Source: Mobula hypostoma
Lineage: Eukaryota
Length of the DNA stretch: 64,000 nt
Direction of reading: 5' to 3'
Assembly (NCBI RefSeq): GCF_963921235.1
Contig: NC_086108.1
Coordinates: 79,858,001 to 79,922,000 of the forward strand
Below, piece after piece: positions 9,316 through 17,800 of the stretch. A model generated the notes under the pieces. The model saw nothing but the letters and a program-made list of their open reading frames with translations, was not told the origin of the DNA and did no database searches. The stretch's first letter is position 1. Each line of letters starts with the position of its first letter. The translations under genes and the position numbers were made by a program.

Positions 9316-10963
9316 ATAGTCATAGTTGTACTTTATTGATCCTGGGGGAAATTGGTTTTCATTACAGTTGCATCACAAATAATTAAATAGTAATAATAAA
9401 ACCATAAATAGTTAAATAGTAATATGTAGATTATGCCAGGAAATAAGTCCAGGACTAGCCTATTGGCTCAGGGTTTCTGACCCTCCAAGGGAGGAGTTGT
9501 AAAGTTTGATGGCCACAGGCAGGAATGACTTCCTATGACGCTCTGTGTTGCATCTCGGTGGAATGAGTCTCTGGCTGAATGTACTCCTGTGCCCAACCAG
9601 TACATTATGTAGTGGATGGGAGACATTGTCCAAGATGGCATGCAACTTGGACAGCATCCTCTTTTCAGACACCACCGTAAGAGTGTCCAGTTCCATCCCC
9701 ACAACATCACTGGCCTTACGAATGAGCTTGTTGATTCTGTTGGTGTCTGCTACCCTCAGCCTGCTGCCCCAGCACACAACAGCAAACATGATCTCACTGG
9801 CCACCACAGACTCGTAGAACATCCTCAGCATCGTCCGGCAGATGTTAAAGGACCTCAGTCTCCTTAGGAAATAGAGACGGCTCTGACCCTTCTTGTAGAC
9901 AGCCTCAGTGTTCTTTGACCAGTCCAGTTTATTGTCAATTCGTATCCCCAGGTATTTGTAATCCTCCACCATGTCCACACTGACCCCCCGGATGGAAACA
10001 GGGGTCGTCGGCACCTTAGATCTCCTCAGGTCTACCACCAGCTCCTTAGTCTTTTTCACATTAAGCTGCAGATAATTTTGCTCACACCATGTGACAAAGT
10101 TTCCTACTGTAGCCCTGTACTCAGCCTCATCTCCCTTGCTGATGCATCCAACTATGGCAGAGTCATCAGAAAAATTCTGAAGAGTTTACAAGGATGTTGA
10201 CGGGACTTGAGAAACTGAGTTACAGAGAAAGGTTGAATAGGTTAGGACTTTATTCCCTGGAGCGTAGAAGAATGAGGGGCGATTTGATAGAGGTATATAA
10301 AATTATGATGGGTATAGATAGAGTGAATGCAAGCAGGCTTTTTCCACTGAGGCTAGGGGAGGAAAAAACTAGAGGACACGGGTTAAGGGTGAAGGGGGAA
10401 AAGTTTAAAAGCAACATTGGGGGGGCTTCTTCAGACAGAGACTTGTGGGATTGTGGAATGAGCTGCCAGATGAAGTGGTAAATGAGGGCTCATTTTTAAC
10501 ATTTAAGAAAAACTAGGACAGGTACATGGATGAGAGGTGTATGGAGGGATATGGTCCAGGTGCAGGTCAGTGGGACTAGGCAGAAAAATGGTTCAGCACA
10601 GCCAAGAAGGGCAAAAAGGCCTGTTTCTGTGCTGTAATGTTCTATGGTTCTATGGTTCTATGACAAGACCCTGTGCAGTAGTTGAAGTCCGAGGTGTAAA
10701 TGGTGAAGAGAAGGGGGGACAAGACAGTCCCCTGTGGAGCCCCAGTGCTGCTGATCACTCTGTCGGGCACACAGTGTTGCAAGCACACGTACTATGGTCT
10801 GCCAGTCAGGTAATCAAGAATCCATGACACCAGGAAAGCATCCACCTTCATCGCTGTCAGCTTCTCCCCCAGCAGAGCAGGGCGGATGGTGTTGAATGCA
10901 CTGGAGAAGTCAAAAAATATGACCCTCACAGTGCTCGCTGGCTTGTCCAGGTGGGCGTAGACA
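9316..10963 (-). mobile_element. Rex1/Babar LINE, 5'-truncated, RT domain well preserved
   Basis: RT motifs FFDFSSAFNTI, GAPQGTVLSP and FSDD. ORF 9460-10059 (KTKELVVD, YKYLG, QSRLYFLRRLRSF). AATAAA plus a (CTATGA)n tail at ~9316-9337. Confidence 0.92.
10184..10660 (+). mobile_element. CR1 3' fragment inserted into Rex1 RT
   Basis: ORF 10194-10481 (YRERLNRLGLYSLERRRMRGDLIE) and a (GGTTCTAT)n tail. Rex1 rejoins as TGAAGA|TGACAAG. Confidence 0.9.
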
Positions 10964-11897: not shown

Positions 11898-12668
11898 GGG
11901 AAGAATTTCAAATCCTAGTGGGATGCCTAAATGTTGGAAGCTCATGATCATATTAGGTGATAGGTTCCATCTGGGGAATGATGTGGCACCAAATCATAGG
12001 ATGTTCTTGGAATTCTTTTTGACATTTTGTTGCTTATTAAATTTGACAGACAATTTTTCTATATTTTAAAACAAAGAACGTAGAACCAAACAGCCTCAGG
12101 CACATGATGTTTTGCTGATCTATATAAACTTACTCCATGTTGATTCTCACCCTTTCCTTCTAAACAGCCCAAAACCTTCCATTTTTCCCTACATCCATGT
12201 GCCTATCTAAGAGTCACTTAAATGTCCGTAATGTAGCTGCCTTTACAACCAGCCCCAGCAGTGCATTCGAAGCGCCTAGCATTCTCTGTGTAAAAAAAAC
12301 TACCTTTTATGTCTCCTCTTAATTTTCCTCAACTCACCATAAAAATGTATCCTCTGGTATTGGTGATTGTTCCCCTGGGGAAAAGGCACTGGCTGTCCAC
12401 TCTTTCATAATCTTAAACACCTCTATCAAGTCAACGCTCATACTCCTTTGCTCCAAAGAAAAAAGCTCATGCAGCCTTTTCTCAAAGAACATGGTCTCTA
12501 ATCCAGGCTGCGTCCACTGCTCCCACACCCCTCCAATAATAAGGCAACCAGTGCTGAACACAGTGCTCTAAGTGTGGTCCAACTGGAGTTGTGTAGAGCT
12601 GCAACGTTTATCTCGCAGCTCTTGAACAATGGGCTGAAATCAGCAAACAACACAGTGCTACTCTGTAC

Positions 12669-13012
12669 ATACATCTACTGATGCCTCTGGACACATCTTC
12701 AGTGATGTTCCTGGAATCATCGGCTGTTTTGGGTCCTTCAACATCATACGACCTCCTCCAGGTAACCCAGCCGGGGCTGATCAGACCCCAGCTTGTGTCC
12801 AGATGGCTAGCTACTCATGACTCCATGGCTCCCCTCTTTTGAGCCACAGCCATCTTGAGGCCCTCTCGGCCGCATCGGTGGTACTGCGGATGGCTCTCCT
12901 CTTCCTCTGTCCCTCGATGCCCAAATTGCTGAAGGCTCTAGCTAAGGAATGGGCTGCAAATCCCCTACAACCATCATCCACTGGGAGACACCTCGCTCTC
13001 CATCCAGCCTGC
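12669..13012 (-). mobile_element. RLE-clade non-LTR retrotransposon 3' end (HERO-like)
   Basis: GWRARCLPVDDGCRGFAAHSL...AAERASRWLWLKR resembles the PVEVGCRGF C-terminus of the restriction-like endonuclease domain. Stop at 12811-12813. GTAC is duplicated at 12665-12668 and 13013-13016. Confidence 0.8.
12686..12803 (-). ncRNA. Structured 3' UTR with a rearranged hammerhead-ribozyme-like core (G12 mutated in this copy)
   Basis: Six complementary segment pairs, CTGAAGA at 12702-12696, AAAAC in place of GAAAC at 12730-12726, and a GTA cleavage triplet at 12749-12747. See findings. Confidence 0.6.
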
Positions 13013-13979
13013 GTACTTGGAGGGCTTCCTTTCAAAGCTAAATTGAACTGACTCAACGAAATTGAACATTCCTAGACAGTTTCAATGACTTTGTCGTTCG
13101 ATGTTTTATATTCTGTGTTTCTCACTCATTTTTTGCCATTTGCGCAATTTGTTTTATTTTTGCACATTAGGTGTTTGATATTTTCTTTAAAGGGCCTCCA
13201 TAGTGTTTCTTTGTTTCATGCCTGTCAGTAGGAAGATGAATCTCAGGATTGTATGCTGCATACATACTTTGATAATAAATGTTCTTCGAACCTTTGATTT
13301 TTTTAATGAAGGCCAACATACCATATGCCTTCTTAGCCACCCTATCGACTTGTGAGGTAAATTTGAGTGATCTATGGACAAGAACCTCAAGATCCTTCTT
13401 GTCCTCCACACTGCTAAGAATCCTACCATTAACCTTGAACTTCATCTTCAGGTTCAATCTTCCATAATGTATGACTTCACACTTTTCCTGATTAAACTTT
13501 ATTTGCCACTTTGCTGCCCAGCTCTGCATCCTCTCTATATCCTGTTGTAACCTACAACCTTCTACACTACCCATAACATTCTACTTCCTCATCCAAATCA
13601 TTTATAAAAATTACAAAAGTAGGGAGGTCACAGAATAGATCTCTACAGAACTCCACTAGTCATCAACCTTTGGGCCAAATATTCCATCTGCTACCATCCT
13701 CTGCTTTCTGTGGGCTGATTCATATTTTAAAAGCTAAACATCTATAGTCATCTATAATATTTCTGATGCTTTTATGGTCAGTGAAGTATTTACTTTTTGA
13801 AGAACAGTCACTGTTGTAATGTAGGAAGCATGGTTGCCAAGTTGTGCATTGCAAGTTTCCACAAAGAGCAGTATGATAACAACCAGATCATCTGTCTTAG
13901 TAACGTTGAGAGAGGGATAACTATTGGGCAGGACACAAGGATAATTTTTTTTCATCTATTTCAAAATTATCCCATAAGA

Positions 13980-14878
13980 TGCTAAGGATGCTAAGAGGAT
14001 GCAGGGTGACTTGGATAGGTTGGGTGAGTGGGCAAACTCATGGCAGATGCAATTTAATGTGGATAAATGTGAAGTTATCCACTTTGATGGCAAAAATAGG
14101 AAAACAGCTTATTATCTGAATGGTGGCCGATTAGGAAAAGGGGAGGTGCAATGAGACCTGGGTGTCATTATACACCAGTCATTGAAAGTGGGCATGCAGG
14201 TACAGCAGGCGGTGAAAAAGGCAAATGGTATGCTGGCATTTATAGCAAGAGGATTCGAGTACAGGAGCAGGGAGGTACTACTGCAGTTGTACAAGGCCTT
14301 GGTGAGACCACACCTGGAGTATTGTGTGCAGTTTTGGTCCCCTAATCTGAGGAAAGACATCTTTGCCATACAGGGAGTACAAAGAAGGTTCACCAGATTG
14401 ATTCCTGGGATGGCAGGACTTTCATATGAAGAAAGACTGGATGAACTGGGCTTGTACTGGTTGGAATTTAGAAGATTGAGGGGGGATCTGATTGAAACGT
14501 ATAAGATCCTAAAGGGATTGGACAGGCTGGATGCAGGAAGATTGTTCCCGATGTTGGGGAAGTCCAGAACGAGGGGTCACAGTTTGAGGATAGAGGGGAA
14601 GCCTTTTAGGACCGAGATTAGGAAAAACTTCTTCACACAGAGAGTTGTGAATCTGTGGAATTCTCTGCCACAGGAAACTGTTGAGGCCAGTTCATTAGCT
14701 ATGTTTAAAAGGAAGTTAGATATGGCCCTTGTGGCTACAGGGGTCAGGGGGTATGGAGGGAAGGCTGGGGCGGGGTTCTGAGTTGGATGATCAGCCATGA
14801 TCATAATAAATGTCGGTGCAGGCTCGAAGGGCCGAATGGCCTACTCCTGCACCTATTTTCTATGTTTCTATGTTTCTA
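13980..14878 (+). mobile_element. Young CR1 (HER1-like) 3' fragment
   Basis: ORF 14182-14781 is an intact ORF2 C-terminus, followed by GGCCGAATGGCC and a (TTTCTATG)n tail. GATGCTAAG is duplicated at the 5' junction. Confidence 0.93.
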
Positions 14879-14879
14879 A

Positions 14880-17800
14880 GATAAGACCATCAGACCATAA
14901 GACTTAGGAGCAGAATTAGGCCATCTGACCCATCGAGTCTGCTCCACCATTCAATCATGGCTGATCCTATTTTTTTCTCTTCCGCCACCCCAGTTTCTAG
15001 CCTTCTCCCTGTAACCTTTAATGCAATAAATTCCATAAAATCACCACCTTTTGGTTAAAGAAATTTTTCCGCATCTCTGTCTTGGAAAGGCACCCCTCTA
15101 TGCTGAGGCTGTGCCCTCTTGTCCTAGACTCTCCCACCATGGGGAACATCCTTTCCTCATCTACTCTGTCTAGGCCTTTCAACATTCAAAATGTTTCAAT
15201 AAGGTGCCCCCTTCCCCTTTCTGAATTCCAGCGAGTACAGACCCAGAGCCATCAAATGTTCCTCATGTGATAACCCTTTCATTCCTGGAATCATCCTTGT
15301 GAACCTCTTCTGGACTGTCTCTAATGCCAGTACATCTTTTCTTTTTTTTTCTTTTCAAATCTTTTTATTGTTGTATTGTACAGGAAAAATAACACGAGTA
15401 CATTGAAGTAACAACACTTACAATGTCTCAAAATAGACATTATCTTAAAGATTGAAAAAAAAATTTGTGATAACAAAAAAAACCTACTAAGCAGAAAGGT
15501 GAGAAAAAAAAAGAACCCATTAGGTGTACAACTGCGGAGTCATGCTCCATACAAAAAGCTCCTAAAAATAAACATCAAACTGCCAGCAAGAAAAGAAAAT
15601 ATACTAAAAAATTTACAGTTAGATCATGGAAAAATTATATCAATTAACTCAAATGATAATAGTGAGCAAATGAGCCCCATCTTTTCTCAAAATCAAATAA
15701 AGGTTCAAAGGTTCGACTTCTAATTTTCTCCAAACTAAGACATAGGATCACTTGAGAGAACCATTGTGACAAAGTGGAAGCTGATGTGTCCTTCCACTTC
15801 AACAAAATGGCCCTCCTAGCTATCAATGTAACAAATGCAATAACATGTTGGTCAGACACAGAGATACCATGAATATTTTGAGGAATTATTCCAAAAAGCA
15901 CAGTGAATTGTTTCTTTTAAATGATTCTGTCTCTATATATGATAATACTGCTTTTAAAGTTACAGACTCTTTTAGATATCTAGGTATTATAATTACTAAA
16001 AAATATAAGGATCTTTATAAAGCCAATTTTGTTCCCTTAGTAGACTCTATGAAGTATTTATTTAGTAGATGGAGTCCACTTACATTTTCACTTGTTGGTC
16101 GTATTCATATAGTTAAAATGATGATTTTACCGAAATTTTTATATTTATTTCAGAATATTCCTGTTTTTTTGACTAGGAAGTTTTTTGATCGGATTGATTC
16201 TATTATTTTATCTTTTATTTGGAATAATAAAAGACCAAGAATTAGTAAATGTTACTTACAAAAATTGAAAAAGGGGATGGAGGTCTTGCTTTGCCTAATC
16301 TAAGAATGTATTATTGGGCTGTTAATGTGCGATATATGTCTTTTTGGTTATACTGGGTTGATAAGAGTGATCGGCTAATTTGGATAGACCTGGAACTGAA
16401 AGTTGTAAAACAGTTGTATTTAACCTCGTTATTGGGAGCTCCTTTACCTATGCAATTAGTTAAAGTTGTTAATTTAAACCTATATCCTGTGATTAAGTAT
16501 TCTTTACAAATTTGGCTCCAGTTCTGCAATTTTTTTAATCTTAAAAAATTTAAACCTTGTAGTTTAATTTACCGAAATTACTTTTTTAAGCTTTCTTTGA
16601 GTGATCCAATTTTTTTACTTCAGTACATCTTTTCTAAGATGAGCTGCCCAAAATTGATCACAATACTCAAGGTGAGGCCTCACCAGTGCCTTATAAATCA
16701 TCAGCATCACATCCTTGCTCTTGTATTCTAGACCTCTTGAAGTGAATGCTAACATAGCATTTGTCTTCCTCACCACCAACTCGACCTGCAAGTTAACCTT
16801 TAAGGTGTTCTGCACAAGGATACCCAAGTCCCTTTGCATCCCAGATTTTTGGATTTTCTCCCCACTTAGAAAATGGTCTGCACATTTATTTCTACTACCA
16901 AAGTGCATTACCATGCATTTTCTAACATTGAATTTCATTTGCCACTTTCTTACCCATGCCATGGCTCTGGCACCATGCCAGCATCCAATGATCTTTGAAA
17001 GATCATTTCTAATGCCACCACAATCTCTAATGCTACCTCTTTCAGAACCCTAGGGTACAGTTCATCTGGTCCGGGTGACTTATGTACCTTTAGCTCTTTT
17101 AGCTTTTTGAGCACCTTCTCTCTTGGAATAGTAACTGCACCCACTTCTCTTCCCTCACACACTAGAAACATCAGGCTTACTACTAGTGTCTTCCACAGTG
17201 AAGACTGATGTTAAATACTCATTTAGTTCATCAGCCATCTCCTTGTTCCCCGTTATTATTTCTGCTTCATTTTCTAGTGGTCTTATGTACATTTTCATTT
17301 CTCTTTTATTTTTAACATACTTGAAAAAACTTCTCCTATCCATTTTGATATTATATTCTAGCTTGCTTTCATATTTCATCTTTTCCCTTCGAATGATTTT
17401 TTAGTTGCTTTCTGTAGATTTTTAAAAACTTCCCAATCCTCTATCTTCCCACTAATTTTTGTTCTGTTGTATGCCCTTTCTTTCGTTTTTACAAAAGCTT
17501 TGACCTCCCTTGTCAGCCATGGTTGTACTATTTTACCATTTGAGTATTTCTTCATTTTTGGAATGCATATGTCCTGCACCTTCCTCATTTTCCCCAGAAA
17601 TGCACGCCATTGCTGCTCTGCTGACATCCCTGCCAGCAGCTCCTTCCAATTTACTTTGCCCAACTTCTCTCTCATACAACTGTAGTTTCCCTTACTCCAC
17701 TGAAGTACTGCTACGTCATACTTTATTTTCTCCCTATCAAATTTCAAGTTGAGCTCAATCATATTGGATCATTGGTTCATAAGGGTTCTTTTACCATAAG

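Follow-up and report, generated by a model that had tools for sequence, protein, structure and literature searches.

The HERO-type copy in the window

The window, meaning the whole 64-kb stretch of DNA analysed here, carries on its minus strand a 377-nt end of a HERO-type LINE. The copy is 5'-truncated, has a 23-nt internal deletion at 13013/13012, and finishes at a fixed 3' end without poly(A). Decayed RT fragments of other LINEs, with provisional family labels, surround it as a mosaic. Shortly after the stop codon lies a fold of six helices with the core segments of a hammerhead ribozyme. Core positions (C3, G12, H17 and so on) are named in the usual hammerhead numbering.

12661..13037, minus strand: HERO-type LINE copy, endonuclease ORF end and 3' UTR
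12811..12813, minus strand: TAG stop of the ORF, with 8 nt between it and the outer helix downstream
12794..12803, minus strand: P1 (outer helix), 5' strand
12769..12793, minus strand: P2 hairpin, in a four-way junction with P1, stem II and the core, no linker bases
12764..12768, minus strand: stem II, 5' strand; 12768 is the equivalent of G10.1
12757..12762, minus strand: P4, 5' strand; stem I-II interaction helix, as described for type SGC in passages of PMC10085705
12748..12753, minus strand: stem III, 5' strand, with G16.2 and U16.1 as its last two bases
12746..12747, minus strand: H17 (A12747) and the cut predicted at 12747/12746 by hammerhead analogy
12740..12746, minus strand: stem I, 5' strand
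12731..12735, minus strand: stem II, 3' strand; C11.1 is 12731
12727..12730, minus strand: G12 A13 A14 A15.1, with A in place of G12 in this copy
12722..12727, minus strand: stem III, 3' strand
12710..12715, minus strand: P4, 3' strand, with a conserved RUGA linker before it
12703..12709, minus strand: stem I, 3' strand
12696..12702, minus strand: core C3 U4 G5 A6 N7 G8 A9, intact in this copy
12686..12695, minus strand: P1, 3' strand, directly after A9
12661..12685, minus strand: 3' tail to the fixed end, which is 86 nt from the predicted cut
9460-10185, 10143-10481, 13167-13580, 14155-14781, 15785-16731 and 16615-17768: neighbouring RT fragments

All six helices of the earlier note, which was made from the letters alone, are present where it placed them: the outer helix (10/10), the extra helix P4 (6/6), stem I (7/7), stem II (5/5, one of them U-G), stem III (5/6) and the hairpin, which spans 12793-12769. 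The core segments are GUA (12749-12747), (A)AAA (12730-12727) and CUGAAGA (12702-12696). The minus strand folds with a z-score of -4.08, and none of 200 shuffles folds as well. The proposal that G12 was lost through CpG-type decay is borne out, with A in the window copy and G, in a CpG context, in 24 of 30 siblings sampled by position. Three further positions depart from the family: 12750 in stem III is off the majority (C in 1/30 siblings), 12724 is private to this copy (0/30) and 12764 also differs from the majority. The window copy is thus decayed. Natural intact copies exist, since 20 of the 30 siblings pass a strict six-helix descriptor; in one intact sibling (L003, z -4.40), P1, P2, P4 and stem III are in the minimum-energy structure.

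The host element

Searching the 3.48-Gb genome with a 26-nt pattern from the core gave 2,042 exact matches, against none for the reversed control. Long copies encode, in a single ORF, an RT domain (Pfam RVT_1, E=2.6e-16), then a CCHC knuckle (CX2CX8HX4C), then a PD-(D/E)xK nuclease. The copy L150 has a 1,161-codon open frame within a 3,637-nt unit. No GIY-YIG nuclease family of Pfam was found in the C-terminal 401 aa, which has RLE motifs instead; a PDB sequence search gave no match, and no relative turned up in the viral contigs searched. Identity of the protein to Takifugu BAC82598 and to Tetraodon BAC82599 and AAN12398 is 61-65% over about 960-1,090 aa. These three fall with the element in one 100% clade of 19 rows in a protein tree built without an outgroup, and from their species and consecutive accessions we infer that they are HEROFr and HEROTn. 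The assignment of the motif to the 3' UTR of a HERO/RLE element is upheld.

Sampled copies share a common 3' end 86 nt past the predicted cut, lack poly(A) and have differing flanks; insertion is therefore not target-specific. The HERO clade (HEROFr, HEROTn and HERODr) is likewise described as having a single ORF of RT, CCHC and RLE without site specificity, but the HERO passages of PMC2790886 and PMC3636483 do not mention a ribozyme. Residues 97-118 of the L150 ORF form an N-terminal cysteine-histidine motif upstream of the RT; PMC2790886 reports that HERO has none in that position.

The L150 ORF is 87.7% identical over 988 aa to a flatfish protein (P0002), and its C-terminal part is 82-87% identical to several other teleost proteins. 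By sequence similarity, the L150-type element would be a candidate for horizontal transfer if teleosts are only distant relatives of its host. The same genome also contains two or more older HERO families (L409-L438) that have the same motif and a GUC site, with different 3' tails. Three loci (L123, L140 and L142) are rearranged, with a 5' ORF segment joined to the 3' end. The name Zebulon is reportedly also used in the HERO clade, for an element with partial-tandem structure.

Conservation of the fold and core

The best 80 of 318 metagenome relatives (43-88% protein identity) were scanned with a descriptor of the six helices that allowed one core mismatch. It matches 42 of the 80, namely 40 among the 64 whose downstream sequence is 200 nt or longer, and two shorter ones; 14 of the other loci are too short and 24 were missed. 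The descriptor found nothing in 64 reverse complements, 80 upstream coding stretches or 192 shuffles, nor in 80 viral and 80 prokaryotic loci taken, among the pattern matches listed, for having GAAAC...CUGANGA at similar spacing. Even four helices form in only 0/80 of these viral and 1/80 of these prokaryotic loci, among the matches listed. Elsewhere in the window the descriptor gives one false positive, at 9901-10200 in an RT fragment.

A covariance model was trained on 47 rows: the window copy and 46 relatives, of which 38 were descriptor matches and eight came from a looser parse, with three near-duplicates and one decayed copy left out. It matches 68 of the 80 relatives, on the coding strand and downstream of the nuclease, and 22 of these 68 lie outside the training set. 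Among the 12 relatives that it misses, nine end within 171 nt and L043 is cut short inside the motif, which leaves L098 and L114 as loci without the motif downstream of the nuclease.

In a structure-blind MAFFT alignment of the 47 sequences, whose median identity is 48%, paired cells make up 87.8% of the total, against 30-44% in slid controls. Two-sided changes occur in 32 of 36 pairs, and covariation is 0.645 compared with at most 0.158 for slid partners. On the protein tree, in which some rows have frameshifts and long branches, partners change together in 210 of 287 cases (73%) against 37% for non-partners, whose maximum in 10,000 draws is 48%. The covariation called for in the earlier note is thus strong in all six helices. 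Stem I is 88.0% paired, with its first pair formed in 47/47 rows by five pair types; stem III is 89.6% paired and P4 87.2%, with two-sided change in five of six P4 pairs. The majority of the main family in the genome (89/105) has a U-C mismatch in stem III.

The catalytic positions follow the hammerhead pattern. A15.1-U16.1 appears as U-A in 44/47 rows, the N16.2 pair is G-C in all 47, and H17 is A in 11, C in 18 and U in 18. G12 is G in 43/47 rows. CUGANGA is invariant in the 47 rows, which were selected for having the core; held-out matches are the fairer test for that reason. Among 23 model matches outside training, several of them near-duplicates of training rows, C3 is kept in 14/17, U4 in 17/17, G5 in 17/17, A6 in 18/18, G8 in 16/17, A9 in 17/17, G12 in 17/20 and U16.1 in 22/22, while N7 takes all four bases and H17 is G in 0/21. 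One subclade (L064:2181-2299, L065:2074-2192 and L104:1523-1637) has U for C3 and keeps G8. In another (L057, L060, L065, L081 and L104), P1 is apparently shortened to about 4 bp.

Core and covariation are kept even where as much as 380 nt separates the motif from the stop. Indirect evidence comes from protein C-termini: in 98 of 227 retrieved proteins, among them the named ones of pufferfish, zebrafish and lancelet, they match, under a loose pattern, peptides that spell the 5' half of the motif. Rfam gave no meaningful match: the best E value for the window was 1.3, and eight relatives gave none at E<=1. Taken together, a conserved fold of the hammerhead type is very probably real; judged from sequence, it belongs to the HERO family of fish and lancelets and is deeply conserved.

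A split core on a four-way junction

From 5' to 3', the strand order is stem II, P4, stem III with GUH, stem I, stem II with GAAA, stem III, P4, and stem I with CUGANGA, and the whole is clamped by P1 and the P2 hairpin. A9 runs into P1, and a G of an upstream strand supplies G10.1. The core, P1, P2 and stem II therefore meet in a four-way junction, whose linkers have zero bases in 37 of 42 parses, a count to be read with the descriptor's preference for short linkers and a few parses with a wrong P1. The linker from stem I to stem II is 0-8 nt in 41 of the 42 parses, mostly 2-4.

A canonical stem II, between the strand 3' of A9 and the strand 5' of G12, was considered and rejected: pairing covers only 73 of 186 cells, none of the 47 rows has the full set of four pairs, and co-change (12/31) is at the null level. 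With the upstream strand, all four pairs form in 42/47 rows and 97% of cells pair. The first base of that strand is G in 44/47 rows, pairing with C11.1 or U, and R10.1-Y11.1 is G-C in 37/47 and G-U in 6/47.

According to passages of Eckert 2023 (PMC10085705), the three blocks of the hammerhead core are assumed to be uninterrupted, and six permutations therefore follow. The same passages describe type SGC, in which about 3 nt link stem I to stem II and a helix connects the other sides of the two stems. The type-SGC ribozyme HRIMA-1 has, like the HERO motif, the order of site, GAAA and CUGAnGA, the same core, the short linker and the joining helix. In type SGC, however, Block C is uninterrupted, and the 5' strand of stem II and the P4 partner come after CUGAnGA; here these strands lie upstream of the cut strand, and Block C is broken, with A9 entering P1 and the four-way junction. 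The earlier note's reading as a non-circularly permuted hammerhead holds. An assignment to plain type SGC does not, as the link from A9 to 10.1 is replaced by the junction and the feature of a contiguous stem II fails. The SGC/CSG/GCS ring has its opening within Block C and the four-way junction as its clamp, a topology outside Eckert's six permutations. On the sequence tests applied, the motif appears hammerhead-like in every respect except the contiguous stem II.

A crystal structure of a pseudoknot (PK) hammerhead is described in passages of PMC11300833. Its core survives a re-engineered helix II, with G12 as base, G8 as acid and the A9-G12 pair beside G10.1-C11.1; there, unlike here, A9 and G10.1 belong to the same short stem and no four-way junction is described. 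By analogy, we infer that stem II would stack on the G12-A9 pair and P1 on P2, preserving that active site. In the hammerheads covered by passages of PMC10085705 and PMC11300833, A9 adjoins 10.1 or is at most 1-2 nt from it, and the four-way junction could, on this comparison, impair catalysis. Some precedent for tolerance exists: passages of PMC4209133 report that an extra base before stem II is accepted, and those of PMC13725137 that hammerheads without helix II still cleave slowly. With stem II so stacked, the RNA would probably cleave after H17, with G12 as base and the 2'-OH of G8 as acid.

No description of this wiring order was found, and it is apparently new. Full-text searches outside most subscription papers, Repbase Reports, the Zebulon paper, Fell et al. 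2025 with its supplements, and bioRxiv supplements returned no paper that links HERO to hammerheads and none on this wiring. Four motif strings and the word HERO were absent from the Eckert supplement.

Partial tandems and the insertion template

The genomic copies were examined for traces of the predicted cut. A 5' UTR pattern has 153 matches, of which 90 were examined; in 82 of these 90 elements, a 5'-truncated 3' fragment (the head) lies directly upstream of the 5' UTR. Such partial tandems also place the motif 86 nt ahead of the unit that follows. Heads run past the predicted cut in 57 of 90 cases; one of 90 ends at the cut and three of 90 end within 2 nt of the unit junction. Drop-off along the heads is steady, at 0.30-0.43% per nt, and the junction is without an indel in 79 of 80.

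Insertions read straight through the predicted cut and end 86 nt downstream. A targeted scan found none of 30 starting at the cut, and none of the 30 examined, of 45 pattern matches, ended there. The cut is therefore rejected as the determinant of both the 5' and the 3' ends of insertions. The 3'-located self-cleaving RNA suggested in the earlier note thus covers only half of this arrangement. From these results it follows that the template runs covalently unbroken across the cut site and the unit junction, and that the 3' end is set internally. The lack of ends at the cut fits a circle and, equally, an uncut template. Among the contigs listed, mostly guessed to be RNA, none bridges the cut with 31 letters on each side, and contigs cannot show ends.

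Heads resemble the tails of their own elements. In the 28 usable pairs of 42 (14 were dropped, as the 3' end of the tail lay outside the sequence compared), the rate at which a head has non-majority variants in common with its own tail is 0.0050 per site, compared with 0.0015 for the tails of other elements, and none of 5,000 permutations is as high. This argues against later insertion by random family members. Two loci, L169 and L212, have 41 nt of flank in common directly upstream of their heads, the sole such pair among 87 flanks, as read-through or template switching would give; this pair weighs against a circular template. Their heads start 11 nt apart, and neither has a tail at the expected distance.

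In eight metagenome loci, the ribozyme is followed by a conserved 5' UTR motif, at a distance from the cut of 100-137 nt in the seven measured, so that the tandem layout extends beyond this genome. The HERO 5' UTR starts with the motif CAGTGAC..CCAGG-AAAG..CTGG, followed by short repeats starting GTGAC.

L150:1039-1150, 5' UTR motif; also in L054, L072, L079, L080, L086, L095, L097 and L103

Situated just past the fixed 3' end, the motif is possibly a signal for protein binding or for priming; the overall fold of the 5' UTR is not significant (z -0.81). One metagenome contig has two units head-to-tail, L086 then L082, with 70% nucleotide identity and 3,730 nt apart, which may be a hetero-tandem or a misassembly.

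The ribozyme also overlaps coding sequence in some families. In P0092, P0034, P0061, P0065 and others, one frame runs through its 5' half; by comparison with the loci, the stop of the P0092-type frame would be the first three bases after the predicted cut, and an alternative frame has its stop within the loop of P2. Translation could unfold the ribozyme.

A proposed circular template and its alternatives

The reading preferred here, which in its most far-reaching form has a probability of roughly 0.4, is that HERO elements have an active seventh, split-core hammerhead permutation on a four-way junction and replicate by a rolling cycle on a circular template. A read-through transcript of a partial tandem would carry two ribozymes one unit (3,637 nt) apart, which would excise a monomer. 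P1, stem II, P4 and stem III would keep the ends of this monomer together, and ligation would close it into a circle. The HERO protein would then prime internally, always 86 nt past the ligation point, and its RT would copy round the circle to give 5'-truncated copies with one fixed 3' end. More than one lap would yield a new partial tandem with two ribozymes, and the window copy would be an early-terminated product that later decayed. The step by which the ribozyme cuts and circularises the unit RNA, and the RT copies the circle from an internal start, has slightly less than even odds. A circle explains the continuous template and the internal 3' end, and also the regeneration of heads.

Penelope-like elements offer a parallel. 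Passages of PMC4209133 and PMC11167929 describe a hammerhead in a partial-tandem retroelement with a fixed 3' end shortly downstream of the ribozyme, as here, and no genomic or RNA-seq trace of a cut; here there is likewise no genomic trace. A circular model has been proposed for them (passages of PMC4209133), and internal priming has been shown for one (passages of PMC11167929). In these accounts, the RT of Penelope-like elements is telomerase-like, their nuclease is of the GIY-YIG type and their hammerheads are minimal ones of type I, in contrast to the R2-group RT, PD-(D/E)xK nuclease and non-circular permutation of HERO, and the likeness would be one of mechanism only. The 5' HDV-like ribozymes of R2 and other LINEs, as covered in passages of PMC7650587, PMC3636483 and PMC13580325, are also self-cleaving RNAs of elements with no promoter of their own. 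They are of another class, and their cut sets the RNA 5' end, whereas most HERO heads run through the predicted site.

An active ribozyme could also coexist with integration from an uncut, internally primed read-through tandem RNA, a less likely account that nevertheless explains most of the same picture, including the heads, their own-tail variants and the lack of ends at the cut. Cleavage would then be slow or protein-gated and would serve another RNA pool; it might free or open the downstream unit for cap-independent translation, as with the R2 HDV-like ribozymes, or limit RNA levels. In passages of PMC11167929, the anole Penelope hammerhead needs protein, ribozyme mutants still insert in vitro, so that it is dispensable there, and uncut RNA is the dominant template; in RNA viruses, according to passages of PMC13725137, hammerheads that precede ORFs promote their translation. 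The HERO frame is itself open from the junction, with the first Met about 80 codons in. On an uncut template, however, heads could only shrink with each generation, and daughters should often run into the flank of the parent, yet only the one pair of flanks is shared and head starts do not pile up.

That the fold derives from a hammerhead but no longer cleaves, and acts as a scaffold for protein binding or priming comparable to the R2 3' UTR pseudoknot, is unlikely. The missing genomic trace of a cut, the absent canonical stem II linkage, the fixed 3' end close behind the fold and the subclade with U for C3 would suit such a scaffold; the exact match to the catalytic pattern (N7 free, H17 never G, and G12, G8 and A15.1-U16.1 kept) in elements down to 43% protein identity, and the slow cleavage of hammerheads without helix II, reported in passages of PMC13725137, speak against it. 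Linear unit RNAs, possibly nicked by the ribozyme but with four helices holding them, might instead give tandems when the RT jumps between templates or when insertion occurs at the 5' end of another HERO. Template jumping is a property of the R2 RT. The possible hetero-tandem L086/L082 favours linear units and counts against a circle, because a monomer circle cannot make a hetero-tandem; but linear units should leave starts piled up at the junction or the cut, and the junction would hardly be so free of indels, which makes this origin improbable. The idea that the resemblance arose by chance, or that overlap with the end of the ORF drove the conservation, draws only on the translation of the motif's 5' half in some families. 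It is refuted by the covariation in 47 rows and the tree-aware co-change, and is scarcely credible when core and covariation persist so far past the stop and 0 of 160 core-matched controls fold, among the matches listed.

Implications for HERO elements

The wiring breaks the stated assumption that limits hammerheads to six permutations. Covariance-model and descriptor searches built on that assumption are blind to it, in keeping with the lack of an Rfam match. Non-circular hammerheads hereby move from anonymous metatranscriptomes to a widespread, protein-coding animal retrotransposon with a biology accessible to experiment. The circle would offer a mechanism for the partial-tandem structure and the fixed, tail-less 3' end of HERO LINEs, and HERO provides a second system for testing the open circle hypothesis for Penelope. 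As R2-group elements are being engineered for gene insertion, their template requirements matter. If the preferred reading is true, an autonomous LINE of the R2 group would have converged on a circular RNA cycle like that of viroids or Penelope elements, and vertebrate genomes would harbour a non-circularly permuted hammerhead at thousands of copies.
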